Below, one piece after another: positions 28,677-53,084 of a stretch of DNA of 64,000 nucleotides. Both the position numbers and the translations under genes were made by a program. Positions within the stretch are counted from its first letter, which is position 1. Every line of letters starts with the position of its first letter. The notes beneath the pieces were generated by a model. The model worked only from the letters and a program-made list of their open reading frames with translations, did no database searches and was not told the DNA's origin. Origin of the DNA: a bacterium (GTDB lineage: Bacteria; SAR324; NAC60-12); contig CBDBHR010000003.1 of the NCBI GenBank assembly GCA_965205865.1, positions 61,781-125,780 on the forward strand, in the 5' to 3' direction.

Positions 28677-31600
28677 ATGAAAATAACGTTCACTCAGCAG
28701 ATGTCATTGGATCAGCATAGGAACCGGTTTTTGACCGATGATCGCTGTCACCAGCATTTTTTCGCAGTTCGCTGGCCCCAGGGGTTTGTCTGTCCCTCCT
28801 GTGGCCATCGTGAGTATTATGAGGTGTCGCTGCGCAAACTGTTTCAATGCAAACAATGTCATTCCCAAACCTCAGCTACAGCAGGTACGATCATGCACCG
28901 GACTCGGACTCCACTGCGTTACTGGTTTTGGGGGATTTATTATGTGGCCGCATGCAATGGGGAGATAACGGCTCAACAATTATCAGAAAAAATCGGATTG
29001 AATTACCATGCCGCCCGGAGAATGCTGGGAAAAATCCACGAAATCGAAAAGAACCAGGGTTTCCTGGGGGATCTGTTGAAAAGCTTCAAAATTCCTGAAG
29101 GGTCAAAGGAAGAAGTCTGCACCGGACCGGGAATGGAAACGCCACCCGGGCCAATAAAAGGGCCTTATCCACTAATAGAGCAGACGATTCCAGACAGAAA
29201 AAAACCGGATATACCGGGTTATTCGCTGGAGGAGGTTATTTTTGAAAGCGGACGGACCCGGCTCTGGCGGGGCAGGCGGAATAGCAACGGGCTTTTGGTT
29301 TTGATCAAGGGAGCGGCTTCCTCTGAGCAGAGCGCGCAGGAACAGGCGGAAATACGGCACGAGCATGAGATCACCCAGGCTCTCAAGATCGATGGGGTCC
29401 TCCGGTCAGAGGAACTGGTGGCGTGTGAGAACGGATCGGCTTTGATCCTGGAAAACACCGAAGGCCTTCCTTTAAGAAAGCTGATGGATGCCACCCGGCT
29501 CGACCTGCCGGACTCGCTTAAGGTAGCGGTTTCACTGACCAGCACCCTGGAAGAAGTGCACCGGCAGGGCATCCTGCATAAAATGATCAACCCGTTGAAT
29601 ATTTTTGTTGATCCGGCATCAAGAACAGTCAAATTGACCGGCTTCGGCCTGGCCACCCGGCTTCCCCGGGAAAATTTGACTACGTTGAGTCCCCAGCTTA
29701 GCGGGGAAACCCTGCCCTATATCTCCCCCGAGCAGACCGGCCGGATGAACCGGGTGCTCGATTATCGCAGTGATTTTTATTCCCTGGGCGCCACCCTTTA
29801 CGAACTTTTCAGCGGGAGAGTGCCTTTCCAATCCCGGGAGGCCATGGAAATCATCCACGCCCACATTGCCCGGCAGCCCGTACCCCTGGACCAGATGGCG
29901 CCGCAGGTGCCCAAAACTCTTTTCCGCCTGGTGATGAAACTGATGGCCAAGCGTGCCGAGGCGCGCTACCAGAGTCACTCGGGCCTGGCAGCCGATCTCC
30001 TGGCATGTCTGGATCAGCTCGAAAATCAGGGGAGCCTGTCCGATTTTCCCCTGGGCCGCTATGACATTCCCAGTGAACTGCAGATCGCCCCGGGGCTTTA
30101 CGGCCGGGAAGATGAAATCGCCACCCTGGAGGCCGCCCTGGAGCGAGTCAGTCAGGGAGCAACCGAGATGGTGCTGGTCTCGGGATCCGCCGGTGTCGGC
30201 AAAACTGCCCTGGCTGCTGAAATTCACAGGTCCGTTGCCCAAAAAAATGGCTTCTTCATCTCCGGCAAGTTTGACCAGCTCCGGCACAATATTCCCTACA
30301 GCGCCCTGATCCAGGCGCTACGGGGACTCATCCGGGAGGTATCGGCCGAAGGCAAGTTCGGAATGGAGCGTTGGAAAAGCAGGATACGGGCTGCCCTGGG
30401 ACCCAGCGGACAGCTCCTGACCCGGGTGATCCCGGAACTGGAACAGATGATCGGCCCGCAACCCCCGCTGCCGGAAATGGGAGCGCTGGAGACCCGCAAC
30501 CGCTTCACTGCCGTTTTACTGGAGTTCATCTTCGTTTTCTGTGAAAAAACCCATCCGCTGGTTATTTTTCTGGACGACTTGCAGTGGGTGGACGCCGATA
30601 CCCTCAAGCTGGTTGAACGGATCGCTCAGGATTCGGAGAGGAAACCTCTGCTTTTCCTGGGAGCCTATCGCGACAACGAGGTGGATACCGGCCACCGGCT
30701 GATGATCAGTAGTGAAGTGATCAAAAAAACAGGCCAGCTGCTGCAAACGATCCCCTTAAAGCCCCTGAACCGAGAACACATCTCACGACTGCTCGTCCAT
30801 ACTTGCCACTGCCGTCCTGAGGATGCAAACCCGCTGGCCGAGCTCCTGCTGCGCAAAACCGGCGGCAATCCCTTCTTTGTGAGCCAGTTTTTGACCCTAC
30901 TTTCCGAGAAGAACCTGATCCGGTATCAGCCTGAGGAAAAACGATGGACCTGGGAGCTGGCCGCCATCGATTTCCTGGCGGTGACAGATAATGTAGTTGA
31001 GTTGCTGATTGACCGGCTCCAGGGTTTTTCCTCTGAAACCAAGCGACTCTTGAGCCTGGCGGCCTGCATCGGCAATACCTTTGACCTCGAATCCTTGGGA
31101 CTGATCAGCGGAGAAGGAAGCGGGGAGATCGATGAGAACCTGTTGCCGGCCCTGGAAACCGGGTTGATCCTCGGTTTTTCCCAGGCCCCGCAGCTGGATA
31201 ATCCGACCGCCGGAGCGAGTGCGGAAGATGGCAGCTACAAGTTCCTGCATGACCGGGTGCAGCAGGCTGCCTATGCCCTCATTGCGCAAAAGGAGAAACC
31301 GGCGGTCCATCTTCAAATCGGTCAGACCCTGCTCAAGCAATACGCACCGGAGAAAGGTGAAGATCTGCTTTTTGACATCGTCCATCATTTCAACCTGGCC
31401 CGGAGGGTGAAGGATAAATGGAAAGAACGATCGAAGCTAGCGGAACTCAACCTGAAAGCCGGTCGTCAGGCCAGAGCGGCTTCGGCTTTTGAACAGGCCC
31501 TGGAATACTTTACCATCGGCCTGGAGCTTTCAGGAGCCACCGCTTGGAAACGGCAATACCCCCTGGCCTTATCCCTGCATGAGGAAGCTACGGAGATGTC

Positions 31601-34600
31601 ATGGCTCTGCGGCCGCTTCGAGTTGATGGAGAAGCTGGCGGGTGCCGTAAAAGACAACGCCCGAGAGGACCTGGACCTGGCCAATGTTTATCAATGCCTG
31701 ATCAAGGCGTACACGACCCAGGGTGAATTAAAGAAGGCACTGAAAACGGGTGAGGAAATTCTGGAGAAATTTGGGTGTAAACTGAGCCGTCTGTCTCCCG
31801 ACCAGTGGCAGCAGACCCTCGTTCAAATCAAACCCAGCCTGGCCGGTAAAAGCGCTGAAGAAGTGATGCGCTTTGAGCCGCTCACCCAACCGCTTTCCAA
31901 GGTCCTTGTCCATATTCTATATGAGCTCCATTTGCCATATAGCGAGGCTGGGGTTACTTTGGATGACGGTCTTTGGCAGCCCATCGCTTCAAAACGCATC
32001 TCTTTGCTGCTGAATCATTTTCATCCGAAACAATCACCCGAATCCTATGCTCTCCTTGGAATGATATATTGCGTGTATATGCAGGATTTTGAATTTGGTT
32101 ATGGACTCAATCGTCTGGGCATACAGCTCATGGAAGCGCTTGATCTGAAGGAAATAAACTGTAGAGTTTCCGGGGGATTCAATGGTGGGACCCGGTCCTA
32201 CCGGGAGCCGCTATCGGCGACATTGGAGCCCTTGCTTGAAGCTCATAAGATGGGAATCGAAACGGGAGATTTCTTCTATGCCGGTCGTAGCGCCGTCGTA
32301 AGATGTCAGATTGCGTTTATGTGCGGGAAAGAGCTGAATTGGCTGAAAGGGGAATTGTCGACGTTGAAGCTTGCTCTCAAGAAGATCGATTATATTATCG
32401 GGTCTCCCCAGGTGGAAATGCTTATGAAGGCGGTCATGATTCTGATGGAGGAGCCTTCGAGCCTGTCGAGCGGGATCATGGATCAATACCATAGGGTGAC
32501 GGGTGCAGGGTACGTCTATCGTGAACAGAGCTGTTTTAATTACCAAAAGCTGGTGCTGCAATACCTGTTCGAAGAATACGAAGCAGCGCGGGAGACGGTT
32601 TTTGAAATGATCAACTTGATGAAAACCTACAAGGATGCCCTTACCGATCCCCTGGCCAACTGCTACCTGTCCCTCGCTCTCCTCGCGCTTTGCGACCAGG
32701 GGCCTGAGGGGGAAAAGGAGGAGATCCTCACCCAGGTTAACGACAATCAGGCTTTATTGGAGAAACTGGCGCGCAGTGCCCCGCCCAATTACCGACACAA
32801 GCATCACCTGGTGGAAGCCGAACGGTTGCGAGTTTTGGATGGTGAAAGTGATGCGATCCTGTCCCACTATGACCAGGCCATCGCTTTGGCCAGAGAGAGC
32901 GAATTTATCCACGAGGAAGCCCTGGCCAATGAACTGGCAGCCAGGTACTTGCTCAACCAAGGGCAAATCGACGCCGCCAGGTCTTACCTGCGCTCTGCAA
33001 TGGAGAAATACGAAGCCTGGGGGGCAAAACGGAAGGTCGTGCACCTGAAGCATCGATATCCCGGGTTGATTGCCGATGATCACACTGAAGCAGCGGCGTC
33101 TCCTTGGGCCAACCTGGATCTGGGGACGATGCTCAAAGCCTCGGAGGCCATCTCCAGTACCATCGAGCTGGAACCGCTGCTGGAGATCTTGCTCCGTATT
33201 CTAATGGAAAATGCCGGGGCCCAGACAGCAGCCCTGCTTCTGGAAACCGAAGGTCAGTCTCTCATTGCTGCCCGCGGGAGCGCCGAGCAGGTCGAATGTT
33301 TTCTACCGTTTTCCCTGCCTGTGGAAAAGGCTTTCTCCCTCTCCCTCTCGGTCATCTCCTGGGTGAAACAAACCCGGGAACACCTGGTTTTGGACAACGC
33401 CTCCCACGAGGAACGGTTTGTCGGGGATGACTATATTAAAAGGGAACGTCCTAAATCGATCCTGTGTGCGCCGATACATCATAAGTCCGCCTTGAGCGGA
33501 ATCATTTACCTGGAAAATAACCTGGTCGAGGGGGCCTTCACCTCCCGGCGACTCGAGGTTATCAAACACCTTAGCTCCCAGATCGCCATTTCCCTGGAAA
33601 ATGCCAGGCTCTACGACAACATGAAGCGAGCGGAAGCCGAATACCGGGGAATTTTTGAAAACTCCATGGAAGGCATCTACCGGACGAGCCTAGATGGCCG
33701 CTTTCTGAACGCCAATCCAGCGATGGCCCGGTTATTCGGATACTCCTCCCCGAAAGAGCTGATGGAATCCATCACCGACGCCGGGCACCAGCTTTATGTG
33801 AATCCGGAACAACGCAACCAGTTCCTGGATCTCATGCGGCAACGACGTCCCGTTTCGGATTTTGAGGTGGAATTTTTCCGTAAAGACCGCAGCACCTTTT
33901 GGGCATCCCTGCACGCCCGCCCCGTCTATGACTTGAAAAACCACCAGTTGCTGTTCATTGAAGGGTTGGTAGCGGATATTACCCACCAGAAAAAGGCGCT
34001 GGACGAACTGAAAGCGAGCGAAACCTCCCTGCGTCAGGAAAATATCCTCCTGCGAGCCCGCATCAAAGATCGCTTTCGGTTTGGTGACATTATCGGAAAA
34101 AGCGAACCCATGCAGCAGGTATACGAGTTGATTTTAAAAGCGGCGGCCACCGATGTGAACGTGATCCTCTACGGCGAATCGGGAACCGGAAAAGAACTGG
34201 TCTCCAAGGCCATTCATGAGGCCAGTGACCGCAAGGAGCAAGTGTTTTTCCCGGTGAATCTCGGGGCCATCCCCGAAAACCTGATCGAGAGCGAGTTCTT
34301 TGGACACAAAAAAGGCGCTTTCACCGGGGCCGACAGCGATCAGCGCGGTTTCCTGCGCCTGACCGACAAAGGCACTTTGTTCCTGGATGAACTGGCCGAT
34401 ATCGGGCTGAACCTGCAGGTTAAACTGCTTCGTGTCCTGGAGGGCGGTGGCTTTACCCCGCTTGGCACCACCGAGGTCATCAAGCCCGATATCCGGTTCA
34501 TTGCAGCTTCAAACCAGGAGCTGAGTCATCGGGTGAAGACGGGGCAAATTCGAGAAGATTTCTATTACCGGATCCATGTCTTCCCCATTCGCCTGCCCCC

Positions 34601-35027
34601 GCTCCGGGAAAGAAAAGAGGATATCCCCCTGCTGGTCGAGCATTTTTTGAAATCCACGGCACCGCTTCAAAAAGGAAAGCCCATCACACCGGGATTTCTG
34701 GAAGCCCTGCAGGCTTACGATTGGCCGGGCAATGTCCGGGAGCTGCAAAACACCCTGCTACGCTATGTCACCCTGGGAGAGGTCGATTTTCCGGGGGAAC
34801 GGATAAATTCCAAAATCAGCGAAACTCCAAATTTTAGAGATAACACCAACCATGGGAAAATTGCGCTGGATCAAGCCGTCGCGGATAGTGAAAATGCGAC
34901 GATTCTCAGCGCCCTGAAAAATTCCCAGGGCCACAAGGTAAAAACCGCTGCCGCCCTGGGGATCTCCCGGACTACCCTCTTCAACAAAATGAAAAAGTAT
35001 GGAATTCGGACTATCATCGGAACTTAA
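28677..35027 (+). CDS. multidomain sigma54 activator: IS1595-type Zn-ribbon/HTH, Ser/Thr pseudokinase, STAND-like AAA ATPase, helical repeats, GAF, PAS, AAA+ bEBP, Fis HTH
   Basis: RWPQGFVCPSCGH..FQCKQCHSQTSATAGTIMH; YISPEQTGRMNR..DYRSDFYSLG; GSAGVGKT; FLDDLQWVD; TGGNPFF; FLHDRVQQAAY; SILCAPI..IYLENN; GESGTGKE, GAFTGA, LFLDE, WPGNVREL; AAALGISRTTLFNKM. Confidence 0.93.
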   Translation: MKITFTQQMSLDQHRNRFLTDDRCHQHFFAVRWPQGFVCPSCGHREYYEVSLRKLFQCKQCHSQTSATAGTIMHRTRTPLRYWFWGIYYVAACNGEITAQQLSEKIGLNYHAARRMLGKIHEIEKNQGFLGDLLKSFKIPEGSKEEVCTGPGMETPPGPIKGPYPLIEQTIPDRKKPDIPGYSLEEVIFESGRTRLWRGRRNSNGLLVLIKGAASSEQSAQEQAEIRHEHEITQALKIDGVLRSEELVACENGSALILENTEGLPLRKLMDATRLDLPDSLKVAVSLTSTLEEVHRQGILHKMINPLNIFVDPASRTVKLTGFGLATRLPRENLTTLSPQLSGETLPYISPEQTGRMNRVLDYRSDFYSLGATLYELFSGRVPFQSREAMEIIHAHIARQPVPLDQMAPQVPKTLFRLVMKLMAKRAEARYQSHSGLAADLLACLDQLENQGSLSDFPLGRYDIPSELQIAPGLYGREDEIATLEAALERVSQGATEMVLVSGSAGVGKTALAAEIHRSVAQKNGFFISGKFDQLRHNIPYSALIQALRGLIREVSAEGKFGMERWKSRIRAALGPSGQLLTRVIPELEQMIGPQPPLPEMGALETRNRFTAVLLEFIFVFCEKTHPLVIFLDDLQWVDADTLKLVERIAQDSERKPLLFLGAYRDNEVDTGHRLMISSEVIKKTGQLLQTIPLKPLNREHISRLLVHTCHCRPEDANPLAELLLRKTGGNPFFVSQFLTLLSEKNLIRYQPEEKRWTWELAAIDFLAVTDNVVELLIDRLQGFSSETKRLLSLAACIGNTFDLESLGLISGEGSGEIDENLLPALETGLILGFSQAPQLDNPTAGASAEDGSYKFLHDRVQQAAYALIAQKEKPAVHLQIGQTLLKQYAPEKGEDLLFDIVHHFNLARRVKDKWKERSKLAELNLKAGRQARAASAFEQALEYFTIGLELSGATAWKRQYPLALSLHEEATEMSWLCGRFELMEKLAGAVKDNAREDLDLANVYQCLIKAYTTQGELKKALKTGEEILEKFGCKLSRLSPDQWQQTLVQIKPSLAGKSAEEVMRFEPLTQPLSKVLVHILYELHLPYSEAGVTLDDGLWQPIASKRISLLLNHFHPKQSPESYALLGMIYCVYMQDFEFGYGLNRLGIQLMEALDLKEINCRVSGGFNGGTRSYREPLSATLEPLLEAHKMGIETGDFFYAGRSAVVRCQIAFMCGKELNWLKGELSTLKLALKKIDYIIGSPQVEMLMKAVMILMEEPSSLSSGIMDQYHRVTGAGYVYREQSCFNYQKLVLQYLFEEYEAARETVFEMINLMKTYKDALTDPLANCYLSLALLALCDQGPEGEKEEILTQVNDNQALLEKLARSAPPNYRHKHHLVEAERLRVLDGESDAILSHYDQAIALARESEFIHEEALANELAARYLLNQGQIDAARSYLRSAMEKYEAWGAKRKVVHLKHRYPGLIADDHTEAAASPWANLDLGTMLKASEAISSTIELEPLLEILLRILMENAGAQTAALLLETEGQSLIAARGSAEQVECFLPFSLPVEKAFSLSLSVISWVKQTREHLVLDNASHEERFVGDDYIKRERPKSILCAPIHHKSALSGIIYLENNLVEGAFTSRRLEVIKHLSSQIAISLENARLYDNMKRAEAEYRGIFENSMEGIYRTSLDGRFLNANPAMARLFGYSSPKELMESITDAGHQLYVNPEQRNQFLDLMRQRRPVSDFEVEFFRKDRSTFWASLHARPVYDLKNHQLLFIEGLVADITHQKKALDELKASETSLRQENILLRARIKDRFRFGDIIGKSEPMQQVYELILKAAATDVNVILYGESGTGKELVSKAIHEASDRKEQVFFPVNLGAIPENLIESEFFGHKKGAFTGADSDQRGFLRLTDKGTLFLDELADIGLNLQVKLLRVLEGGGFTPLGTTEVIKPDIRFIAASNQELSHRVKTGQIREDFYYRIHVFPIRLPPLRERKEDIPLLVEHFLKSTAPLQKGKPITPGFLEALQAYDWPGNVRELQNTLLRYVTLGEVDFPGERINSKISETPNFRDNTNHGKIALDQAVADSENATILSALKNSQGHKVKTAAALGISRTTLFNKMKKYGIRTIIGT

Positions 35028-35507
35028 TAAGGGCATGATCATAACTTAGACCACTTCCCCAAAAAAGGTACCGATTAATGACACAATTTATGAAGCAGTT
35101 TCACCTGAAGTTAAAAGAATGGATTGATACAGTGGTTCACTCAAATAAAACCCTGCCTTTTTGCGGAGATCATCAAGATGAGGAAGAAGTCTGTCCACCA
35201 GTTTATTTGCTCTTGCTTCCAGCAAAATCCCAACGACTCCCATAACAGGTAATTCTAACCGTTTCGCCATTCGTCGCCCCTCTTTTTCATCCAATAAAAC
35301 TAAATCTGCGTGTAATTCTAATGCCAGAGCAATCGTCTCTGATTCTCCCAGATCGAGGTCGTTTTCTAAAGCTGTGACAAGGGCTTTATTCTCGACAGAA
35401 TGTCTTTCAATCCAGGTAGCCTGGGAAACTTCATAGCTGCCTGGCCACTTTTTCCTTTCATGGTTTAATTCATCCCATACGCCCTGGGCAATATAAATAG
35501 ATTTGTA

Positions 35508-37203
35508 CCTAAATCCTGCAATTAGATGACAATCAAACATGGAAATGGTAATATACTCAAATAGTTAACACCAGAATCAACATTTTAAGAGATCACCATT
35601 ACCATGAAAAACAAAGGTAGCGCAAGATCGGCAAGAACGACAGCAAAAAACATCCATATCAGCCAGGGAGGCAGAGACCTGACCGCGCAAGCAGGCTTGA
35701 TTCCGGTTGTCAAATTTTTTCACAAAGAAGGGATTGTTTCAAAGACAGAGCAGACCGTAGATCATCGGCGTGGCGCCACGGGTCTTTATGACGCGGTGGA
35801 CATGGTCATTTTGTCGGTGGTCGGCATTGTTGGTGGCGCCCGTTCGATTCGTTCGATTGTGACAGTTTGGAACGACCGTGTTTTGAGTCGTGTGGCCGGT
35901 TGGCTGAGGATTCCGGATGAAACCACATTCGGCCGGATACTGCGTACTTTCACACAGAAAAACATCAATGAGATGGAGAGCTTGAACCATCGGATTCGAG
36001 CCGGTATCTGGCGTAAGGCGCTTCGAAGTGGGACAAGCATCGTTGGGGTGTTACACTGTCTTGTGATTGACGTGGACTCCACTGTGAAAACGGCCTACGG
36101 CAAGCAGCAAGGAGTGTCTGTCGGATATAATCCCCACAAACGCGGTGCAGCTTCGTATCATCCTCTGCTGGCATTTTGCGCAGAGACAAAGGAGATTCTT
36201 CAGGGTTGGCTTCGTGATGGGAGTGCCTATACCAGCAATGGAGTCGTTGAATTCATGCGGCAACTTCTCGCTCACCTTCCAAATCGGACTCGCACTCTGT
36301 TTCGTGGAGACAGTGGTTTTTTTGTGGGGGATTTGCTGGATTTCCTCGAAGAACGAGGCCATGGCTATCTGATCAAGGTCAAACTCAAGGGGCTTGTCTC
36401 GTTGTTGGAAACCCAAAAATGGCAAAAAGTGAAGGGGCAGCCCGCTTGGGAAGGGTGTGAGTTTTCCCACCAATGTGAAACTTGGAGGAGGTCAAGAAAA
36501 TTCATGGCCGTACGCAGGGAGAAAGAGGAGGAACTCAAAGGGATGGCCACCCTCTTTGAGATGAAGGAGTACGATTATTTTTGTTATGTTCTCACTGACG
36601 CGCTCACTCCCTGGCAGGCTCACAAAGAGTATGGCCAAAGGGCGGTCGCTGAGACATGGATTGAGGAAGCAAAAAATCAAACTGCGCTGGCTCAGATTAA
36701 AACCGACGATTTTTGGGCCAACAGTGCCTTGTTCCAATGCGCGATACTCGCTTACAACACGCTGCGCTGGATGGCCCTTTGTAGTGGTAACGCAATACTG
36801 CGCCGTTGGGAACCGGCCACCATGCGCACCTATCTTGTCCGAATGGCAGGAAAATGGACGAGTGGCGCTCGTCAACAAAAACTGAGAGTTCCGGAAAGAA
36901 CACTTTACAATGCTCAATGGGATGCATGGGTCGCTGTTGGAGAGACCTGGATCCTTTGTTTCACTCCAGTGGATACATTTTGCTGAGATGTAGATTCCCA
37001 AATCCAGGGAGAAGTACGTCTTGAATCTTGTGCCCGCGAAAGCGGGTATCAGATCATCACAAAATATGACGATCTAATGGAGGGCGGAAAAACCTTTATG
37101 AGCAAGGACTGATGGAAATTCAACTCTCAAATCCTTTTTTTTAAAAAAACCTCTCAAAGAGTGGGGGGAAACTCAATCAAAATATTCAATTGCAGGATTT
37201 AGG
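35508..37203 (+). mobile_element. IS1380-family element, intact (1696 bp)
   Basis: Perfect 16-bp terminal repeat CCTAAATCCTGCAATT, 5-bp target duplication TTGTA, single transposase ORF. Confidence 0.93.
35604..36986 (+). CDS. IS1380-family DDE transposase
   Basis: IDVDST..YGKQQG..GYNP..SYHPL, FRGDSGF, RAVAETWIEEAK, FWANSALFQ. Confidence 0.92.
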   Translation: MKNKGSARSARTTAKNIHISQGGRDLTAQAGLIPVVKFFHKEGIVSKTEQTVDHRRGATGLYDAVDMVILSVVGIVGGARSIRSIVTVWNDRVLSRVAGWLRIPDETTFGRILRTFTQKNINEMESLNHRIRAGIWRKALRSGTSIVGVLHCLVIDVDSTVKTAYGKQQGVSVGYNPHKRGAASYHPLLAFCAETKEILQGWLRDGSAYTSNGVVEFMRQLLAHLPNRTRTLFRGDSGFFVGDLLDFLEERGHGYLIKVKLKGLVSLLETQKWQKVKGQPAWEGCEFSHQCETWRRSRKFMAVRREKEEELKGMATLFEMKEYDYFCYVLTDALTPWQAHKEYGQRAVAETWIEEAKNQTALAQIKTDDFWANSALFQCAILAYNTLRWMALCSGNAILRRWEPATMRTYLVRMAGKWTSGARQQKLRVPERTLYNAQWDAWVAVGETWILCFTPVDTFC

Positions 37204-37279
37204 TTGTATAAGGATTGCAGTAAATCGAATTGGCCAATCGCTGCTAGATTCGTCAAGGGAGAGGTATTGCTCACAACGA

Positions 37280-37853: not shown

Positions 37854-37895
37854 ATCACTATTTACGTAACATCAGAAAATAATAAAGTTTAATAG

Positions 37896-38097
37896 TGTTC
37901 AAAATATTAAACATTTGTTTCAAATTCTGGATTTTGATCTATAAAGATTTAATATCAGTGAGTTAACGACTATTTCACCTGGCTTTAGTTAACATATTTG
38001 AACATCTGCTTCGCATACCCAAACCTCCCTCTTGTCAAAAATAGATAATAATTACAGTAAGTTAACTGAATAGACTCAGATTTGGCACACTGCTTGA
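37896..38097 (+). promoter_or_regulatory. sigma54-type promoter region with candidate activator and IHF sites
   Basis: TGGCAC-N5-TTGA at 38083-38097 (non-canonical -12); TGT-N12-ACA at 37896-37913 and a related site at 37987-38004; IHF-like TATCAGTGAGTTA near 37953. Confidence 0.55.
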
Positions 38098-43105: not shown

Positions 43106-43157
43106 TGGGCGAGTTTAGTATGATACGCATCGACAACATTCAGGGAGGAGCGCGTAC

Positions 43158-44369: not shown

Positions 44370-44388
44370 GAAATAGGGAGAATTGAAC

Positions 44389-45543
44389 ATGGACGGAATA
44401 GTAGAAACCAAATCCACGCGCACATGGGTCGTGCGCATCTCAGTCGCTTTGCTGGTCGCGGTGTGGCTGGCTCCGACGCTGGGTCTGTTCGTCTCTTCGT
44501 TCCGAACCGCAGACCAGATCAGTGGTTCAGGATGGTGGGCAGCGCTCTTTCCAAACGAGCAGAACGAAGTTCTCCGGGCCGCCGATCCGGACGACTTTCG
44601 CGTGGCTGACGGCGACGTCTTTACGGTCTCGGGCAATCTGTTCGGCGAGGGGTCCTCGAAGAAGATTTCCGTCTGGGGCACCTCGTCGCGAGCGATTGAT
44701 GCCTATGTTCCTGGTGACGTGGCCGACCTGGGAGATGGGGAAAGCATCACGGTTCAAGCCAATGGCGATTACGTCTGGCGCGGCAACGACGATCAGTTGA
44801 GCGGCCGCGGACAACGCGTATTCGCCACGGTAAGAGCGCCACCCAAATTTACGCTCGCAAATTACCACTGGATGTTGTTCGACGAGAAGCACGAACGAGG
44901 GATATCGCAGGCCTTTCTCAACACGCTGACCGTGGCCATTCCAGCGACGATTATCCCAATCGTGATTGCCGCATTTGCCGCCTACGCGCTCGCCTGGATG
45001 AATTTCCGCGGTCGGGCATGGTTGATTGCGGGGATGGCCATGGGCCTTGTCACTCCTTCCCAGGTTGCCTTGATCCCCATTCTAAAGCTACATGTGGACA
45101 TCGGTATCGGCAAGAGCTATCTGGGCGTTTGGCTCTTCCATACCGCGTTCACCCTGCCGTTCGGCATCTTTCTTTTGCGCAACTACATGGCCGGCATACC
45201 GCGCGAAATTATCGAAAACGCCAAGCTCGACGGTGCGAGTGATTTCCAAATATTTATCAGGATCATTCTGCCGCTCAGTATTCCGGCGCTCGCCGCGTGG
45301 GCGATCGTCCAGTTTCTGTGGACGTTTAACGATCTCCTGGCTGCCAAGGTGTTTCTGATCGACGCCTCCGGTGACACCATGGTCATGACACAGGCCATTA
45401 TCAGAATGATGGGGACCTTTGGCGGCAACTGGGATCTCATGGCGGCGGGGACCTTCATTTCCATGGCGGTGCCGTTGGCGGTCTTCTTCGCCATGCAACG
45501 ATATTTCGCGCGCGGCTTGTTGGCCGGATCGATCAAAGGGTGA
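44389..45543 (+). CDS. aglG: carbohydrate ABC permease (AglG-like)
   Basis: SSFRTADQISGSGWW, AAFAAYALAWM, EIIENAKLDGA, FARGLLAGSIKG. Confidence 0.88.
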   Translation: MDGIVETKSTRTWVVRISVALLVAVWLAPTLGLFVSSFRTADQISGSGWWAALFPNEQNEVLRAADPDDFRVADGDVFTVSGNLFGEGSSKKISVWGTSSRAIDAYVPGDVADLGDGESITVQANGDYVWRGNDDQLSGRGQRVFATVRAPPKFTLANYHWMLFDEKHERGISQAFLNTLTVAIPATIIPIVIAAFAAYALAWMNFRGRAWLIAGMAMGLVTPSQVALIPILKLHVDIGIGKSYLGVWLFHTAFTLPFGIFLLRNYMAGIPREIIENAKLDGASDFQIFIRIILPLSIPALAAWAIVQFLWTFNDLLAAKVFLIDASGDTMVMTQAIIRMMGTFGGNWDLMAAGTFISMAVPLAVFFAMQRYFARGLLAGSIKG

Positions 45544-45639
45544 CCGGTTGAAGAATTGAGGGCAGGGCGTCGCGACATGTGGCGTCCATGAACCGGGTCC
45601 GGCAGACGTGCCGGACGGTAAACAAACAGGGAGGGACCG

Positions 45640-46731
45640 ATGTCCGAAATGAGGCTGACCAACGTCGAAAAAATCTATGGAGGAGCGGTCAAGGTCCTCG
45701 AGGATATCAATCTTGATATCGAGCAGGGTGAACTGATCGTCTTACTCGGGCCGTCGGGCTGTGGCAAGACGACCCTTTTGCGCATGATCGCCGGACTCGA
45801 GACCATCACATCGGGCACGCTGGAGATCGAAGGGCAGGTCGTCAACGATGTGCCACCGGCCCAGCGTGGTATCGCGATGGTGTTCCAGTCCTATGGCTTG
45901 TATCCGCACATGAACGTGCGCAAGAACATGAGCTTTGCCCTCGAGCTTGCCAGGAAGTCGCGTCAGGTGATCAATACCACCGTCACGCAGGCCGCGCGGA
46001 TCCTCCAGATGGAACCCTATCTCGAACGACTGCCCAAGGCGCTCTCCGGCGGCCAGCGTCAGCGGGTTGCTATCGGCCGCGCGATCGTGCGTGACCCCAA
46101 GGTTTACCTGTTCGATGAGCCGCTCTCCAATCTGGATGCCGCCTTGCGGGTGGCCACCCGGATTGAGATTGCCCAGCTCAAGGAGTCGATGCCCGAGAGC
46201 ACCATGATCTACGTGACCCACGACCAGGTGGAGGCCATGACCCTGGCGAGCCGCATCGTGTTGCTCACCCCCGGTGGGCGCATTGCCCAGCTCGGCAGAC
46301 CGTTGGAACTGTATACCCGGCCCCAGAACGAGTTTGTCGCCCAGTTCATCGGTTCGCCCGCCATGAACCTGCTTCCCGGCGAAGTCGTCGGCACGGGAGA
46401 GCAGACCACCATCAAACTCGACACCGGCAGGGTTGCCGTCTCGGCTGCCCCGACGCGAAGTTCGGAGGAAGGCCTGAAGGTCAAGGTTGGGGTTCGGCCG
46501 GAGGATTTGGTAGAAACCGACGGCGATTATATTTTCGAGGGCAAGGTGAGCATCACCGAGGAATTGGGTGAGATGACTCTGCTCCACTTTGACCGGGTGC
46601 AGGACAAGGATACCGTGCTCGCAAAGCTGCCGGGCATTCACACGGGGTTGCGCGGCAACACGGTCAAACTGACCGCCGAGCCGCCCAGGATTCACGTCTT
46701 CCACGAAGGCGTTTCCCTCTATTACCGCTAG
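45640..46731 (+). CDS. aglK: carbohydrate ABC ATPase (AglK/MalK-like)
   Basis: GPSGCGKT, LSGGQRQR, LFDEPLSNLDA, YVTHDQ, TOBE-like tail. Confidence 0.92.
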   Translation: MSEMRLTNVEKIYGGAVKVLEDINLDIEQGELIVLLGPSGCGKTTLLRMIAGLETITSGTLEIEGQVVNDVPPAQRGIAMVFQSYGLYPHMNVRKNMSFALELARKSRQVINTTVTQAARILQMEPYLERLPKALSGGQRQRVAIGRAIVRDPKVYLFDEPLSNLDAALRVATRIEIAQLKESMPESTMIYVTHDQVEAMTLASRIVLLTPGGRIAQLGRPLELYTRPQNEFVAQFIGSPAMNLLPGEVVGTGEQTTIKLDTGRVAVSAAPTRSSEEGLKVKVGVRPEDLVETDGDYIFEGKVSITEELGEMTLLHFDRVQDKDTVLAKLPGIHTGLRGNTVKLTAEPPRIHVFHEGVSLYYR

Positions 46732-46941
46732 GATCTAAGAGGGACAGACCCGTGCTCGTCATCGTGCTCGTGCATGTGCTCGATTGCAACATTCCCGATC
46801 CCTTTGAGATGGGGAAGTCCGAAGAGAAGAGAAGGCATGGAATCCAGGGTTCTACGGGATGTCGTTTCGTTCACGAGCACGAGCACGTCTCACGAGTACG
46901 ATCACGAGGAGCCCCTTCCAGGAGCTAATTTAGGATCTAAG
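46729..46941. repeat. CGTGCT / AGCACG inverted short-repeat element bounded by 11-bp direct repeats
   Basis: TAGGATCTAAG at 46729 and 46931; iterated CGTGCTCG on the left and CACGAG on the right. Confidence 0.6.
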
Positions 46942-47029
46942 GGGGGCGGAAAGAAATAAGGTAAACTTTAAATGCTTCCCATGCTTCGCATGGGAATCCG
47001 AGAACAAACTGAATTCTTAGGAGCTATCC

Positions 47030-48106
47030 ATGCCAATATTAACGAAACATCAGATTGTCCGTATAACAGATGTGATGATGCAGGCGGGAGGAGCCTCGGC
47101 TGGCCACGCTGGTATCGTGGCGGACCACCTGGCCAATGCCAATCTTGCGGGATACGATTCCCATGGGTTCCTTCGCATACCCCAGTACCTGAAAAACATT
47201 GAGGACGGAGATTGCGATCCAAAGGCAGAGCCGGAAGTCGTTGGCAACCATGGGGGGATCCTCCGGATTGATGGCCATTCTACCTTCGGACAGGTGGTTG
47301 CCACACGAGCGACCGAAATGGCGATCGAGAAGGCTCGTGATCATGGAGTAAGCCTGGTAACCATGGGAAACCTTACTCATACGGGTCGAATCGGAACCTA
47401 CCCTGAAATGGCAGCAGCAGCCGGCATGGCTGCCATCATGTTCACGGGCTGGGCGGGAGGACCGTTCGCCACCCTGGCTCCCTTTGGAGGACGCGAGGGC
47501 CGACTAGGTTCGAACCCTTTAGCGATGGCATTTCCTCATGCCGAAGGCGCCCCTGTCCTGCTTGATTTTGCTACCTCTATCACGTCTGAGGGTAAGCTGC
47601 GGGTATACCGTAACAAGGAAGAGGAGCTTCCTGATACTTGGGTCATTGATAAGAATGGGGTCCCCAGTAGGAATCCTAACGATTTCTACGATGGGGGTGC
47701 GCAATTACCCGTCGGTGGGATGCAAGGGGGCCACAAGGGATATGCGCTCTCGCTAATGATCGCGCTTTTCGGGGGAATTCTTGGCCAGATCGCTTCCCCT
47801 CCAGGAGAGATTGATTTTTGGGCAGGATCCACGATACTCGTCATCGACCTGGGCTGCATGGCGCCCCTGGAAACCATCCGGGCCGAGGTCCAACAGATGA
47901 TGAGATACCTTCAAAACACCCCCCTGATGGAAGGATCGAGCGGGGTTTTCTTTCCGGGGGAAAGATCAGCCAATACTCGCCAAGAGCGATTGGCCCAGGG
48001 CATCCCTGTGGATCCCGCCACTTGGGCTCAGGTAGAAGCCCTTTTCGACCCCTACGGGGTCCGTGACCAATTGGCGGATGTCCTTTCCTCCGGAGGGCAT
48101 CCCTAG
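47030..48106 (+). CDS. Ldh_2 family (malate/L-lactate/sulfolactate-type) oxidoreductase
   Basis: GYDSHGFLR, DGHSTFGQV, HTGRIG, LGSNPLA, LDFATS, GHKGYAL, FPGE. Confidence 0.92.
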   Translation: MPILTKHQIVRITDVMMQAGGASAGHAGIVADHLANANLAGYDSHGFLRIPQYLKNIEDGDCDPKAEPEVVGNHGGILRIDGHSTFGQVVATRATEMAIEKARDHGVSLVTMGNLTHTGRIGTYPEMAAAAGMAAIMFTGWAGGPFATLAPFGGREGRLGSNPLAMAFPHAEGAPVLLDFATSITSEGKLRVYRNKEEELPDTWVIDKNGVPSRNPNDFYDGGAQLPVGGMQGGHKGYALSLMIALFGGILGQIASPPGEIDFWAGSTILVIDLGCMAPLETIRAEVQQMMRYLQNTPLMEGSSGVFFPGERSANTRQERLAQGIPVDPATWAQVEALFDPYGVRDQLADVLSSGGHP

Positions 48107-48663: not shown

Positions 48664-49020
48664 TCAGATAGACTTCAGACGGATGCCTAGGCTGTTTAGG
48701 ATGGCTTGATCAATTTCGGTCATAGTCGCTTCAGTAAGATCCGCCAATTTGGGTTCGAGAATTCGTTTTTTGTCGATTGTCCTAATCTGAGATAAGTTGA
48801 CGATTGAATCTTTCGTTAGTCCTGATTCTTTCTTCACAGTCACACAAATTGGAAAAGACGCTTTTTTCCTGGAGTATGCGGTAACTACGGCAACAATGGT
48901 TGTAGGGGAATACTGATTTCCAATATCGTTTTGAATCACGAGGACAGGTCGTCTTTTACCGGTTTTGTGCCCTACTACCGGATCAAGGTTGGCATAATAC
49001 ACTTCACCGCGTTTAATCAT
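48664..49020 (-). CDS. mazF: PemK/MazF family toxin
   Basis: KRGEVYYANLDPVVG..RPVLVIQNDIGNQYSPTTIVA..SQIRTIDKKR. Confidence 0.92.
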   Translation of the reverse strand: MIKRGEVYYANLDPVVGHKTGKRRPVLVIQNDIGNQYSPTTIVAVVTAYSRKKASFPICVTVKKESGLTKDSIVNLSQIRTIDKKRILEPKLADLTEATMTEIDQAILNSLGIRLKSI

Positions 49021-49044
49021 TTTTGTCACCATAAGGCTGACGCG

Positions 49045-49302
49045 TTACAGATTTTCCGCATCGGAGTATTCAAAATCTTTTGAAATCTCAATATTTTCTT
49101 TTGCTAATTCCAGATAAGCGTTTTTTAATCTTACATTAAAAATTCGTGTCTCTATCTGCTCCAATTTTTGCTCTATCGATTCCCTAATTAGAAGGGAACG
49201 TTTTTTTCCTTCAACGGTCGAAGCCCAATCCAGTTTTTCTTTCAATTCAAGAGGAACTTGAACATTGATCCGAGTATTTTGTTGTGCTTTTATTTGACGC
49301 AT
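49045..49302 (-). CDS. ribbon-helix-helix antitoxin
   Basis: RINVQVPLELKEKLD..RSLLIRESI, acidic tail; directly upstream of mazF. Confidence 0.78.
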   Translation of the reverse strand: MRQIKAQQNTRINVQVPLELKEKLDWASTVEGKKRSLLIRESIEQKLEQIETRIFNVRLKNAYLELAKENIEISKDFEYSDAENL

Positions 49303-49717
49303 TTTTCCGCTCCAATTTGTTAGCAATAATGTTTATAGAAATGTATCAAATAATGACTAATAAAGTAACATACTAAATTTGACTGTAACCAACGGATGAG
49401 TTTGTTACCAAAATCAACGGATCTATCTGGAATCATCCCTAGCGGTTTAAACTTGACCACTTCACTCTCAATCCTCACATTCTTAGCTTACCATCAGTCG
49501 CTTAAAATTCCGCTAACCATTCCAGTTGGCTGTTTCATCAATCCCGTTTAGGAGGCCGTAGGTGCGTCCTCATCCAGCAGTCCTTCAGCTTTCAGCCGTG
49601 TCCACGTAGTGATGAAGTTTCTGTGATGGAAGAAGTATAATTTTCTTGCGTTAAATCATCTGAAAGGTTATACAAACATAAAATTTACAATCAAAAATAT
49701 TCATTAAATCATCTTAG

Positions 49718-49910
49718 ATGTGGGAGCGCCAAGTGGATGATACAACTCAAGCTTATTCCTTTCATGAGATCCAAAAGCTCTTTTCGAACGATGAAGTCTG
49801 TCGCAATCACCTCTTCCACCTCCGTTGGCCAGACGGTTATGTGTGCTCAGTCTGCGGTAGTAACCAATACGATGCCCAGAAAAAACGTCAATTACTGCAA
49901 TGCAGAAACT
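49718..49910 (+). pseudogene. IS1595-type transposase Zn-ribbon fragment
   Basis: FSNDEVCRNHLFHLRWPDGYVCSVCG..LLQCRNC, then abuts the RAYT remnant. Confidence 0.75.
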
Positions 49911-50385
49911 GTATCGACCAAGAGCGCTTTAAATCGCCCCTGAAAAAGATGACCCATCCGTTTTTGTTGTTGATTGATGTGGCGCGTGTAACGAAAGGAG
50001 AGATTCTGCATTATTTTTGATAAAGTCAGCTCGCCAACTTGAAGAGCAAAATGCATATGAATACTCATCAAACAAAAAGCATGGACTCGATAATCAAATC
50101 GCTCGATTCCTTCCTCCAACAAAGAATAGACCACTTGGCGATCACTATCCGAAAAAAAGATATACTGTGAACGGATGTTTTCTTCATTTTTTGTCATCCT
50201 GAGGGAACCGAAGGATCTTCTTGATTCCCATGAGATTCTTGCTTAGGCAGCCCTCTTAGCTCAGAATGACAGGTCTTTTGAAAAGTGAAATTTAAACCCG
50301 TTCAGAGTATAGCTTGACCTCCATTGCCACGAAGCATCACATGGTAGATGCCTCCGGGGAGATGAATACGGGGTTTACGAGACAT
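49905..50385 (-). pseudogene. REP-associated tyrosine transposase (RAYT), MITE-interrupted and 3'-truncated
   Basis: MSRKPRIHLPGGIYHVMLRGNGGQA | IFFSDSD..HAFCLMSIHMH..GHLFQGRFKA. Confidence 0.85.
50161..50311. mobile_element. TA-targeting MITE with REP-like hairpin
   Basis: Termini TATACTGTGAACGG / CCGTTCAGAGTATA; removing the element and one TA restores the RAYT frame; internal GTCATCCTGAG...CTCAGAATGAC. Confidence 0.8.
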
Positions 50386-50527
50386 AGGATTCCTTCTAAA
50401 GATTGGGTGAAAACTTTCAAGGAGATCCTACCATAAATAAAAATTTTAATAACGAATCAACGAAGCCTGACCCTCACTAAGATGGCTAGATTATGGTCCC
50501 TTTTTATGAAACATGATAATCTGTCGC

Positions 50528-50722
50528 TCAATCTCTCTTTGTATTTTCAGCAATCATGCTTAATAAGCCAATCATTTTATCTTGACCGGATTCAAGATTT
50601 TCTAAACGTTTGTTGACACCTTGAAGTTCCGCTTTTACTTCTGATATTTCATTAAGTAATTTTTCATCTCGCTCGGCTAGTTCTTGTTGTAGCGTTTGCA
50701 TTGATTTGTGATCGCTAATCAT
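50528..50722 (-). CDS. small coiled-coil hypothetical protein
   Basis: Heptad pattern; start uncertain. Confidence 0.4.
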   Translation of the reverse strand: MISDHKSMQTLQQELAERDEKLLNEISEVKAELQGVNKRLENLESGQDKMIGLLSMIAENTKRD

Positions 50723-51208
50723 TATTGATCTATTTTACGGCATCAAGCATATTATCTTGTGTGATATCTTCAGTTTACAACAGTTCTAACATTTTTTCCC
50801 TTTAGCTGGGGTTTTGGTAATCTTTTAGAAGTACTTTAGCAACTAAAACGCTACTGAACAATTCAATCATCCGGAGCTTTAACACAGCGAATTTTGCTTC
50901 GATTTAAGAGTATCAAAAGTACAAAATTGTCTCTCAAATCAAGCTGAAAAACTGAATAGGGGACATTTTTGCTTTAAAGAAAAGCCATATCGAGAACATG
51001 GGAAACGGAATTCCAAGGGTGCTCCTTGTCAAGCTCCCTATTTATCAAATATTTTGACAGGACAACATATTCTTGAAGTTATTGAAAAGTAACAGGATTG
51101 AAGATCTGTAAATAGGATCAGTTAAACAATATCTGTAAATAACTTGAATTGTTATTAGATCTATTTTATATGAATTCCTCACAATCACTCATTCGGGACA
51201 GATCACAG

Positions 51209-51826
51209 ATGTACAGTATAGGTCAGTTTGCAAAAAAGGTTGGTAAAACCGTTGAAACAATTAGGATATGGGAGCGAAAAGGGATTCTTGTGCCTGCCTA
51301 TAGGAGCCAGGGAAGTCACAGAATGTATAGCGAAGAACAACTGGCACAAGTACTCCGGAAAGATCAACCCAAAAACAGGATCAATATAGGGTACGCTTTT
51401 GTGGATTCCCATAATCAAAAAGATGATCTTCTCAGACAAGAACAATTGATTGAATCCTATCTTGCGCTTCAAGGGAGACCTTATCAAATCATCACGGATA
51501 TAGGAAGTGGCATAAACTACAAGAAGCAAGGATTGAAACAGTTGCTCTTCACGATCATCAGTAATCAAGTAGAAACGATCTACGTCCTCCGCAAAGATCG
51601 TTTGCTTCGATTTGGTTTTGAACTGTTGGAAGAGGTTTGCAGACTCCATAACACGAAGATAGAAATTATAAACCAGTCTGAAGAGGAAACCTCTGAAAAG
51701 GAATTAGTCGAAGAGATGATAAAAAACAGATCGAGTGCCTCAGGTTGGAATAGTCCTGATTCGACTGTGGGAACGCACCGTGAAAAAGCCCTCCGCGGCA
51801 GATTCCTCCGGAAAAAAACCCGATAA
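51209..51826 (+). CDS. IS607-family TnpA-derived protein (MerR HTH plus resolvase fold, catalytic motif altered, C-terminus replaced)
   Basis: YSIGQFAKKVG..TIRIWE..SHRMYS; GYAFVDS instead of GYARVSS; DIGSGINYKK; KDRLLRFGFEL; no tnpB downstream. Confidence 0.85.
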   Translation: MYSIGQFAKKVGKTVETIRIWERKGILVPAYRSQGSHRMYSEEQLAQVLRKDQPKNRINIGYAFVDSHNQKDDLLRQEQLIESYLALQGRPYQIITDIGSGINYKKQGLKQLLFTIISNQVETIYVLRKDRLLRFGFELLEEVCRLHNTKIEIINQSEEETSEKELVEEMIKNRSSASGWNSPDSTVGTHREKALRGRFLRKKTR

Positions 51827-53084
51827 AAAATCCCCCCGCAAGCGGCGGAGTATTAGACCCAAAGGTTCTAACATTTACGTAAATCCGCGGAACTCTGCGG
51901 CCAAAGCAAATAAAGCGTCTCCTGGACTTCCTGAACCGGTTGTGAACAAAACGAAATCCATTTCCAGTCCGGAAAAACCAGAGATTCCGGGTTATTCTCT
52001 GCAGGAGGTCCTTCTTAAAAGCAGCCGGACCCGGCTCTGGCGCGGCAGGCGACAAAGTGACGGGCTTTTGGTCCTGATCAAAGGACCTTCCACTCAGCAG
52101 AGCGCGCAGGAGTTGGCGGAAATACGGCACGAGCATGAGATTACCCAGGCTCTCAAGATCGATGGGGTCCTCAAGTCAGAGGAACTGGCGCAGTGTGAGA
52201 ACGGATGGGCTTTGATCCTGGAAAACACCGAAGGCCTCCCTTTAAGAAAGCTGATGGATGCCGCCCCACTCGACCTGCTGGACTCGCCTAAGGTAGCGGT
52301 TTCACTGGCCGGCACCCTGGAAGAAGTACACCGGCAGGGCATCTTGCATAAAATGATCAACCCGTTGAATATTTTTGCCGATCCGGCATCGGGAACGGTC
52401 AAACTGAGCGGCTTCGGCCTGGCTACACGGCTTCTCCGGGAAAATCCGAATACGTTGAGTCCTCAGCTTAGCGGGGAAACCTTGCCCTATATCGCCCCCG
52501 AGCAGACCGGCCGGATGAACCGCCCACTCGATTATCGCAGTGATTTTTATTCCCTGGGCGCCACCCTTTACGAACTTTTCAGCGGAAGATTGCCTTTCGG
52601 ATCCCGGGAGGCCATGGAAATCATCCACGCTCACATTGCCCGGCAGCCTGTACCCCTGGACAAGATTACGCCGCATCTACCCAAAACCCTTTCCCATATG
52701 GTGATGAAACTGATGGCCAAGCGTGCCGAGGCGCGCTACCAGCGTCACTCGGGCCTGGCAGCCGATCTCTTAGCATGTGTGGATCAACTCGAAAACCGTG
52801 GGAACCTGTCCGACTTTCCCCTGGCTCACCAGGACGTTTCCAAAGAACTGCAGATCGCCCCGGGGCTTTATGGCCGGGAGAATGAAATCACCGCTCTGCA
52901 GGCCGCCCTGGAGCGAATCAGCCAGGGAGCGACAGAGATGGTAATGGTCTCGAGAACCGCCGGTGTCGGCAAAACCACCCTGGTCGGTGAAATCCACAAG
53001 TCCGTGGACCAAAAAAACGGCTTCTTCATCTCCGGCAAGTTTGACCAGATCCGGCACAATATCTCTTACTCGTGTGTACGATGA
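51735..53084 (+). pseudogene. truncated paralog of the 2116-aa protein (linker, pseudokinase, start of ATPase)
   Basis: Closely matches about 29190-30295 at nucleotide and protein level; breaks off after SGKFDQIRHNI. Confidence 0.88.

Follow-up and report, generated by a model that had tools for sequence, protein, structure and literature searches.

Several well-known kinds of bacterial regulator share parts of the architecture considered here. The sigma-54 activators of the NtrC family (NifA, FhlA and NorR types) combine a Sigma54_activat domain carrying the GAFTGA motif with a C-terminal HTH_8 domain and with GAF and PAS domains in front, and their target promoters combine a -24/-12 element with an IHF-like site and with palindromes upstream. 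MalT of E. coli is a STAND transcription regulator whose NTPase and repeat sensor control a sugar-uptake regulon; AfsR/SARP-type proteins have their DNA-binding domain at the N-terminus, and PknK of M. tuberculosis displays the domain order kinase, AAA_16, TPR. The subject of the present work is a family of giant putative sigma-54-dependent activators, represented by two related genes (copy 1 and copy 2) in a stretch of 64,000 nucleotides from a SAR324 bacterium (GCA_965205865.1, contig CBDBHR010000003.1, positions 61,781 to 125,780), referred to below as the window. The features listed are met again in this family, whose body is a combination of known kinds, namely a sigma-54 enhancer-binding protein behind a PknK/MalT-like input of kinase, STAND and TPR domains.

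The differences concern size, number and the N-terminus. Compared with the NtrC family, some 1500 N-terminal residues (head, pseudokinase, STAND NTPase and TPR) have been added, 22 near-identical paralogs occur in one genome, and a predicted DNA-binding module of mobile-element origin, the head, exists at the N-terminus besides the C-terminal helix-turn-helix (HTH). Unlike MalT and the AfsR/SARP proteins, the family has a fused sigma-54 AAA+ motor as output, not a LuxR or SARP domain; the domain order is that of PknK, but the kinase has lost its catalytic Asp; and the N-terminal position of a DNA-binding domain is shared with the AfsR type, whereas its origin here lies in recombinases. The heads are homologs of the DNA-binding parts of IS607-family TnpA (IS1535, ISC1904, ISC1926), of IS1595 transposases and of P4-type integrases. 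No headed protein can itself be a recombinase, because the DDE domain is absent, R and S of the YARVSS motif are replaced and no integrase catalytic domain is present.

To our knowledge, few cases are known in bacteria of host genes capturing transposase DNA-binding domains, a process well documented in eukaryotes. In SETMAR, according to one report (PMC6326780), a host gene captured the DNA-binding part of a transposase and the fusion was kept by selection. The family described here likewise represents host capture of such a part, as do plant nucleotide-binding leucine-rich-repeat proteins (NLRs) with integrated BED fingers, but differs from both in being bacterial, in using three recombinase classes interchangeably, in a 5' capture that includes the upstream DNA, and in the absence of any indicated immune role. 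A search of the published literature, covering articles without their supplementary files, turned up no report of a transposase or integrase head on a STAND protein or a sigma-54 activator, and no description of a set of interchangeable N-terminal heads from three recombinase classes was found in print. DDE, serine and tyrosine recombinases, classes with unrelated mechanisms, have each given only their DNA-binding part to one activator family, which makes up roughly 3% of the DNA of one closed genome of the genus (an estimate from 22 genes of about 6 kb in 4.26 Mb).

As far as can be judged from the sequence, the window contains one working and one wrecked member of this lineage-specific and strongly expanded family. 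Copy 1 (28677-35027, plus strand) is an intact regulator of 2116 residues, as established from its open reading frame (ORF) and translation, Pfam and the motifs in the translation; the sequence AAAGGA lies 8 nt before its ATG, in agreement with the ribosome-binding site proposed in the initial annotation of this DNA. The domain order given by Pfam is head, pseudokinase, AAA_16 STAND NTPase, TPR, GAF, PAS, sigma-54 AAA+ and HTH_8. The head (28677-29084, plus strand, approximately residues 1-136) consists of a Zn ribbon and an HTH region, with Zn_ribbon_IS1595 (PF12760) at residues 20-64 (E 6e-16). No DDE domain was detected by Pfam on the whole protein, which sets it apart from IS1595 transposases. 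A real transposase of this family in the window's own genome (302 aa) has its Zn ribbon at residues 16-63 and DDE_Tnp_IS1595 at 135-284, and the head of copy 1 aligns with its entire pre-DDE part; the cut therefore coincides with the border between the DNA-binding and the catalytic domains. Both lines of evidence bear out the earlier description of this head as an IS1595-type Zn-ribbon/HTH without DDE, fused in frame with the body. The AlphaFold2 model of the first 150 residues (mean pLDDT 80) contains a pair of short helices, a ribbon of three strands and, at 80-136, a bundle of helices; a sequence search of the PDB with the Zn head gave nothing significant.

A Pro-rich linker (29085-29207, plus strand), recognized from the translation and from a tabulation of linker variants, connects the head to the kinase domain (29208-29987, plus strand; Pfam Pkinase at residues 198-437). 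Alignment with PknB showed HKM at the HRD position and GFG at the DFG position, so that both catalytic Asp are gone and the domain is to be regarded as a pseudokinase, not as an active Hanks-type kinase. The AAA_16 domain (residues 474-660; 30096-30656, plus strand; E 2e-44) is accompanied by weak NB-ARC and nSTAND matches and by a TPR_14 match, as expected of a STAND NTPase, followed by GAF at residues 1497-1640 and PAS at 1655-1769. The C-terminal part (34089-35000, plus strand) contains the Sigma54_activat AAA+ domain (PF00158, residues 1805-1971, E 6e-67), its lid and an HTH_8 of class P1 (residues 2068-2108). The translation holds GESGTGKE and KKGAFTGA, characteristic of a sigma-54 activator AAA+ domain, which we take to be the Walker motif and the GAFTGA loop, respectively.

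The extent of the family was established in two genomes and in protein databases. The window's genome (G000; 4.74 Mb, 30 contigs, 92% complete) has four full-length paralogs and several remnants; three of the four carry a Zn head, and the fourth (C23b) follows an out-of-frame TnpA-like ORF. A closed 4.26-Mb genome of the same genus (G001) contains 22 full-length frames (1629-2119 aa) and approximately 5 fragments, and a head is present in all 22: eight of the Zn type, twelve with a tyrosine integrase Arm domain (Arm), one with TnpA in frame and one with a MerR HTH only. When 120 listed homologs from a database search with residues 1-470 were sorted by the sequence preceding the kinase, 43 had the IS1595 Zn head (plus 3 degenerate), 44 the Arm-DNA-bind_3 head (plus 2 partial) and 4 a TnpA or MerR head; in addition, 12 start inside the kinase (probably cut gene calls), 4 inside the linker and 4, a small clade, at MGNLLKIFK, while 4 are distant double-kinase proteins with a cyclase output. 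Three of the four TnpA or MerR proteins are in-frame full fusions with the motif YACVD (P0078, P0087 and P0098, 2038-2040 aa), to which the 2050-aa TnpA-headed frame of G001 is to be added. The MerR-only paralog (near 4005335 in contig C1 of G001; L030/L059) has a 55-aa MerR HTH joined to the kinase at ..KNRIN|PGY.., which looks like a deletion between two GY-containing sites.

Outside the genus, relatives with 35-42% identity are found in five genomes of the same family, with 4 to 17 matches in each, and these matches begin only at residue 177 or so. In each of the 15 large frames examined from other genera, no more than about 40 codons precede the kinase, which marks the heads as an addition specific to this lineage. 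The initial annotation had considered that homologs beginning at the kinase would speak against recruitment of the heads; this was indeed found in other genera, but not in G001, where every full-length paralog is headed. Moreover, Zn-headed homologs exist at 45% (P0114) and 38% (P0119) identity, these two being almost the only long Zn-headed proteins found among 1.84 billion representative proteins.

Two further observations concern the relatives of the family. A second group of sigma-54 activators (TPR, GAF, AAA+ and HTH_8; 1116-1208 aa), which has neither kinase nor AAA_16, carries the same IS1595 Zn head (51% identity) in three of its eight proteins (P0134, P0273 and P0274), the remaining five (P0275-P0279) being headless. 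In a comparison of the kinase domains of P0001, P0105, P0114, P0119 and the loci L085-L099, headed proteins had lost the Asp of DFG (GFG, GFE, GFC) and mostly that of HRD (HKM, HKK), while many of the 15 headless relatives in other genera keep HKD and DFG; the loss of catalysis and the gain of a head may be linked, although the sample is small.

Three kinds of head can thus be distinguished: the IS1595 Zn-ribbon/HTH; an IS607 TnpA that is catalytically dead or reduced to its MerR HTH; and the tyrosine integrase Arm domain. The Zn head has 40-47% identity to real IS1595 transposases of the same order. In the TnpA-type head of copy 2, the MerR HTH and the Resolvase domain are both recognized by Pfam, and the latter aligns with catalytic domains in proteins of the IS607 family (3ilx, E 9e-26; also 6dgc and 6dgb); the YARVSS motif reads YAFVDS (YAFVD at 51392-51406), with R and S both replaced. 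The motif is likewise dead in C23b (YVCVD) and in the three in-frame fusions already mentioned, which distinguishes all of them from IS607 TnpA, and the C-terminal helical part of TnpA is replaced by linker in heads of this type. The Arm heads show Arm-DNA-bind_3 matches with E 2e-10 and 2e-11, followed by linker and pseudokinase, and have neither the core-binding nor the catalytic domain of a P4-type tyrosine integrase. Judging from these domain contents, the catalytic part has been removed or disabled in all three kinds. A sequence search of the PDB with the Arm head gave nothing, and the head type was found in relatives only, with no matches in G000. Parental elements were also sought, and none was found: each of the 15 Arm-head matches in G001 is a regulator or a fragment of one, and TnpA-like matches in G000 are confined to the two head loci, the nearest real TnpA (41% identical) belonging to another genus.

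The heads are maintained by selection. The four Zn-ligand Cys are invariant in all 12 aligned heads, the real transposase included, and are present in 38 of the 43 Zn heads, the other five starting after the ribbon. Approximate ratios of non-synonymous to synonymous substitution (dN/dS), calculated pairwise by NG86, were 0.25 for Zn heads (11 sequences), 0.20 for the Zn2 subtype, 0.245 for Arm heads (12 sequences) and 0.35, 0.35 and 0.18 for three pairs of TnpA heads, values (0.18-0.35) comparable to those of the body (0.28 for the pseudokinase and 0.33 for the AAA_16 region). Low dN/dS and invariant Zn ligands imply that the heads are not neutral debris, contrary to the outcome that the initial annotation had named as fatal to its own proposal.

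Furthermore, the heads do not follow the genealogy of the bodies. When 26 paralogs were placed on a tree by their first 700 body residues, head labels were unclustered: Arm and Zn require 7 changes each, and at least 4 changes are needed even if only starred branches are considered. Sister pairs with unlike heads include L069 (Zn) and L072 (Arm), with support 100, as well as L064 (Arm) and L070 (Zn), with support 98. Classified by head subtype, promoter class and whether PAS is present, the 22 G001 paralogs fall into 18 distinct combinations, and the linkers are modular, with identical segments recurring behind different heads. These relationships point to an exchange of heads among paralogs, together with their own upstream DNA. 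The earlier proposal of a repeated recruitment of recombinase DNA-binding modules as interchangeable N-termini is thereby upheld and extended, from two kinds to three.

The genes following the paralogs indicate their probable function. In nearly all loci, an ATP-binding cassette (ABC) uptake/catabolic operon follows the regulator on the same strand, being either of the sugar type (SBP_bac_1, two permeases, MalK-like ATPase) or of the Opp/Dpp type (a binding protein of about 620 aa and permeases), with BNR, ThuA, SDR, Ldh_2, PhyH or luciferase-like enzymes as accompanying functions. The presumed target operon of copy 1 (38439-48106, plus strand; Pfam) comprises SBP_bac_1, BNR, ThuA, SDR, two permeases, a MalK-like ATPase and Ldh_2, and the same gene set follows other paralogs. 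It is preceded by a -24/-12 type promoter of class P1, TGGCACACTGCTTGAA (38083-38098, plus strand), and by a putative enhancer (37895-38005, plus strand), defined by alignment of 13 P1 promoters, in which GTGTTCAAAATATTAAACA and its partner GTTAACATATTTGAACAT, with palindromes at 37895 and 37988, flank an IHF-like ATCAGTGAGTTAAC. The promoter lies 3055 nt after the stop codon of copy 1, compared with 0.2-2.2 kb in other loci, because a DUF3368 gene and an insertion sequence (IS) are interposed. The latter carries a DDE_Tnp_1_4 transposase gene (35604-36986, plus strand; Pfam E 2e-50) and is inserted between copy 1 and the target promoter; the DUF3368 gene, on the minus strand within 35088-36986, is also found after another paralog (L065).

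One -24/-12-like element was located downstream of the regulator in 24 of 26 loci, and three classes could be defined: P1, TGGCACACTGCTTGAA; P2, TGGCATGACTTTTGAA; and P3, TGGCACCATCCTTGCC. Each is associated with approximately 280 bp of conserved upstream DNA containing palindromes and an ATCAA-N4-TTA element, which we take to resemble the IHF consensus. In genome-wide scans the exact promoter patterns occurred 4 times in G000 and 21 times in G001, each time just after a paralog (a full-length one in G000), and a reversed control pattern gave no match. A scan with the strict sigma-54 consensus (TGGC[AC][CT]-N5-T[TC]GC[AT]) returned 21 sites genome-wide, all of them more than 12 kb away from any paralog, and a scan of the window allowing one mismatch remained at chance level (4 found against 4.5 expected); the family promoters emerged only once TTGA was allowed at -12. 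The genome encodes the sigma factor itself, as a 554-aa rpoN frame on contig C25 (Sigma54_DBD, E 2.5e-58).

Within the body, variability is greatest in the C-terminal HTH_8 region, where pairwise identities are 0.45-0.60 as against 0.8-0.9 elsewhere, and its class agrees with that of the promoter in all 23 of 23 comparisons. Among the 22 G001 paralogs, head type and promoter class vary independently. This match of HTH to enhancer in front of a -24/-12 promoter is that of a sigma-54-dependent activator, as far as promoter and protein patterns allow it to be recognized. Since promoter class tracks the C-terminal HTH, and not the head, in front of ABC operons, the paralogs look like activators of nutrient operons. 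In this way about 25 regulator-promoter-transporter cassettes have been defined, whose substrates could be worked out.

Each head type is accompanied by its own upstream DNA, in most cases with repeated motifs. ATCTGTAAAT is present in 2-4 copies in all four TnpA-head loci and in none of 24 others; CTATTT[GAT] occurs in 2-5 copies on one strand in all 12 Arm loci, TAAA[TC]CATCT in 2-5 copies in 5 of 8 Zn2 loci, and a 10-mer is repeated four times in the single Zn4 locus. Genome-wide, ATCTGTAAAT was found 12 times against about 9 expected by chance, with pairs only at two head loci; a single copy near 53150 may be due to chance. Short direct repeats likewise characterize the ends of IS607-family elements, whose TnpA binds multiple subterminal repeats through its N-terminal domain, as reported in PMC6188088. 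The same upstream regions show duplications: in 4 of 8 Zn2 loci (e.g. G000:C24, C23a, L068 and L069), approximately 66 nt of the gene start have been duplicated, giving a mini-ORF (MWERQVDET.QAHP*) immediately before the real start, and tandem duplications of 85-150 nt are located upstream of Arm and Zn4 genes.

The explanation that we favour has a descriptive and a functional side. The pseudokinase, STAND NTPase, TPR, GAF and PAS part would be the signal-sensing region, by analogy with known families; ligand and ATP binding would cause the sigma-54 AAA+ domains to assemble at the enhancer, as in MalT-type and NtrC-type activators, and to open the neighbouring promoter. The captured module would be the 5' end of a recombinase gene, with element-end repeats, promoter and DNA-binding domain, and the head would still bind those repeats, thereby autoregulating the gene or tethering the protein at its own locus. 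In the descriptive parts alone our confidence is high, while the complete statement, in which an expanded sigma-54 activator family with recombinase-derived heads is combined with head binding at the own locus, is judged only a little more probable than its negation. Binding of the heads to their own upstream repeats, for autoregulation or tethering, is taken by itself as a tentative proposal with somewhat less than an even chance. Were it correct, the family would amount to a modular system, of natural origin, by which large regulators are autoregulated or addressed, and to a clear instance in bacteria of mobile elements that provide a protein domain along with its DNA site. A bolder and rather unlikely extension would be that heads and travelling repeat arrays constitute an addressing system, each activator being tethered at its own locus through binding of its head to the repeats that precede its gene. 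As many as 22 near-identical activators with only three enhancer classes among them would then be insulated from cross-talk, new substrate-specific cassettes would arise by shuffling of head, sensor and output modules, and a bacterial regulatory network would have been built from domesticated DNA-binding domains of mobile elements and their cognate end sequences.

Several points weigh against this explanation. DNA binding by every head is predicted from the family to which it belongs, and Foldseek comparison of the Zn head model with the PDB found no structure at E <= 0.001, only weak Zn-ribbon look-alikes. No repeated motif was detected upstream of heads of the Zn1 type, that of copy 1, or of the Zn3 type, and autoregulation is accordingly left without a site at the one intact gene of the window. 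As each motif is passed on along with its head, finding the two side by side does not count as independent evidence of binding, and CTATTT[GAT] is a short AT-rich word, also present in 1-2 copies in TnpA loci. The dN/dS figures are rough, since pairwise NG86 was applied to recombining, non-independent paralogs. The clade of P0104, P0105, P0106 and P0108 (70-73% identity), whose opening sequence MGNLLKIFK corresponds to the final few residues of the Zn head, suggests that the head can be lost, or else that the starts have been miscalled. Finally, two of the three promoter classes have TTGA at the -12 element in place of the usual TTGC.

Other roles for the heads must be weighed against binding at their own locus. 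The apparent interchangeability of three unrelated folds would be readily understood if the heads no longer bound DNA and served for dimerisation, docking or regulation, or merely provided a promoter, a start codon and a tolerated leader; dimers are formed in the family of the dead resolvase domain, according to PMC6188088, and one paralog manages with 55 aa of MerR HTH and one clade apparently with no head. What the three heads have in common, however, is precisely the DNA-binding part, the catalytic parts being dead or deleted; the conserved core is formed by the Zn ligands together with the HTH region, purifying selection is as strong as on the body, and the MerR-only variant retains the HTH and not the dimerising domain, so that we hold this explanation to be unlikely. 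A second DNA anchor beside the enhancer at the target promoter, recruiting or orienting the activator or distinguishing paralogs with the same enhancer class, would supply the further source of specificity that seems needed where as many as 12 paralogs of a single genome have the same C-terminal HTH class and the same enhancer class, and the Zn head on the second sigma-54 family links head and sigma-54 module. Against it, no head-specific 11-mer was found between regulator and operon for either Zn or Arm loci, head type is independent of promoter class, and the conserved promoter blocks are identical whatever the head; the probability of such an anchor must be considered low.

The initial annotation had interpreted the heads as sensors or decoys integrated in an NLR-like surveillance protein directed at mobile elements or phages. 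A STAND NTPase with TPR and a variable, shuffled N-terminal domain of mobile-element origin is in keeping with such a role; yet every paralog is paired with a nutrient ABC transporter/catabolic operon and its cognate promoter of the sigma-54 type, defence genes were not seen next to the paralogs, G000 and G001 contain no parental integrase or live IS607 to be guarded, and the heads are under purifying selection with no sign of diversifying selection. Of that interpretation the repeated recruitment stands, and the immune or decoy role is not supported and must be considered very improbable. Still less credit can be given to chance insertion, with neutral IS debris and a real start at an internal Met such as METPPG. 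The broken state of copy 2, the IS and repeat debris around it and the 15 kinase-starting relatives in other genera would suit this view, but the open in-frame heads of all 22 full-length paralogs in the closed genome, head dN/dS values of 0.2-0.35, the persistence of Zn-headed homologs down to 38-45% identity and the clean removal of catalytic domains at the domain border make it extremely improbable.

In contrast to copy 1, copy 2 is best described as the dead remnant of a TnpA-headed paralog, which its sequence indicates to have suffered one frameshift and a 3' truncation. Its body (51735-53084, plus strand) consists of linker segments, the pseudokinase and the first 70 or so residues of AAA_16; it shows 79% identity to residues 163-544 of copy 1 and ends inside AAA_16 at about 53062, after approximately 375 of some 1940 residues. 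The first glycine of Walker A is replaced, the sigma-54 module is missing, no family promoter follows in the genome-wide pattern scan, and the next gene, at 53208, is unrelated (DMFA2_C, Pfam). The TnpA-like head (51209-51826, plus strand, from an ATG at 51209) overlaps the body ORF and is out of frame with it. The sole break between its frame and the one open through the linker into the pseudokinase is a GGG run (51768-51770, plus strand) with one G more than the sister locus on contig C23 (GG), to which the TnpA part is 95% identical. The details read earlier from the sequence, including the overlapping IS607 TnpA with MerR HTH and YAFVD and the single frameshift within 51735-51826, are accurate, but the view of copy 2 as a second signalling gene has to be given up in favour of a truncated, frameshifted remnant.

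The frameshift is present in the DNA of the samples concerned, since no indel is seen in the Logan contigs that span 51659-52047; these derive from X1 and X2, which represent a single sample and may be the assembly's own source, and from X3, which belongs to a different study. Contigs of X2 and X3 match copy 2 to 53062-53063 and then continue as intact AAA_16 (..PYSALIQALR), which may reflect a strain with an untruncated copy or a cross-mapped paralog. The mean dN of copy 2 is the highest in the family (0.099); the ratio, 0.33, lies within the family range, and long neutral decay, having left no clear sign, was not adopted.

The full-length sister of copy 2, C23b, is located at G000:C23:42935-49401, with locus L004 holding part of it. 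Its TnpA-like ORF is out of frame by one base relative to the 1940-aa body: the open frame crosses the linker and reaches an A7 run (GGAAAAAAACC), where head and body would be joined either by an eighth A or by a -1 slip on A_AAA_AAA, giving the linker of P0055-type proteins. The frame break may be due to an error of assembly or to genuine mutation, or may represent programmed slippage.

The surroundings of copy 2 constitute a graveyard, in which a Zn-headed stump is followed by repeats and then by the TnpA-headed 5' module with its 375 or so body residues. The stump (49606-49913, plus strand) is the decapitated 5' end of a Zn2-type paralog, with upstream DNA and the first 65 codons, and has 92-93% nucleotide identity (blastn) to the 5' ends of the full-length C24 and C23 paralogs. 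Its ORF (49718-50020) carries Zn_ribbon_IS1595 (E 6e-11), homology to the paralogs ending at 49913; the Zn-ribbon fragment already noticed at 49718 is, by this comparison, what is left of a gene that formerly stood there. The repeat DNA that broke this paralog extends over 49914-50478 (blastn against the genome), and the upstream DNA accompanying the TnpA-type head over 50479-51208 (plus strand; 93-95% identity to C23:42020-42900), with two ATCTGTAAAT repeats at 51104 and 51131.

The repeat DNA includes a 151-bp repeat (50163-50313), which resembles a miniature inverted-repeat transposable element and has at least 25 copies across the genome, with 93-98% identity; the element around it occurs without the repeat at G000:C23:178294-178697. 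Logan contigs join 50162 to 50314, and a polymorphism in the window was considered and not adopted as the reason, the join most likely coming from the paralogous C23 place that has no 151-bp repeat. One public run, a sponge metagenome, holds a small share of the window stretch, and no habitat was drawn from it. Finally, a likely toxin-antitoxin pair on the minus strand (48664-49326), formed by a PemK/MazF-like toxin (E 2.5e-30) and a small upstream ORF (49045-49326), sits between the ABC operon and the paralog stump.

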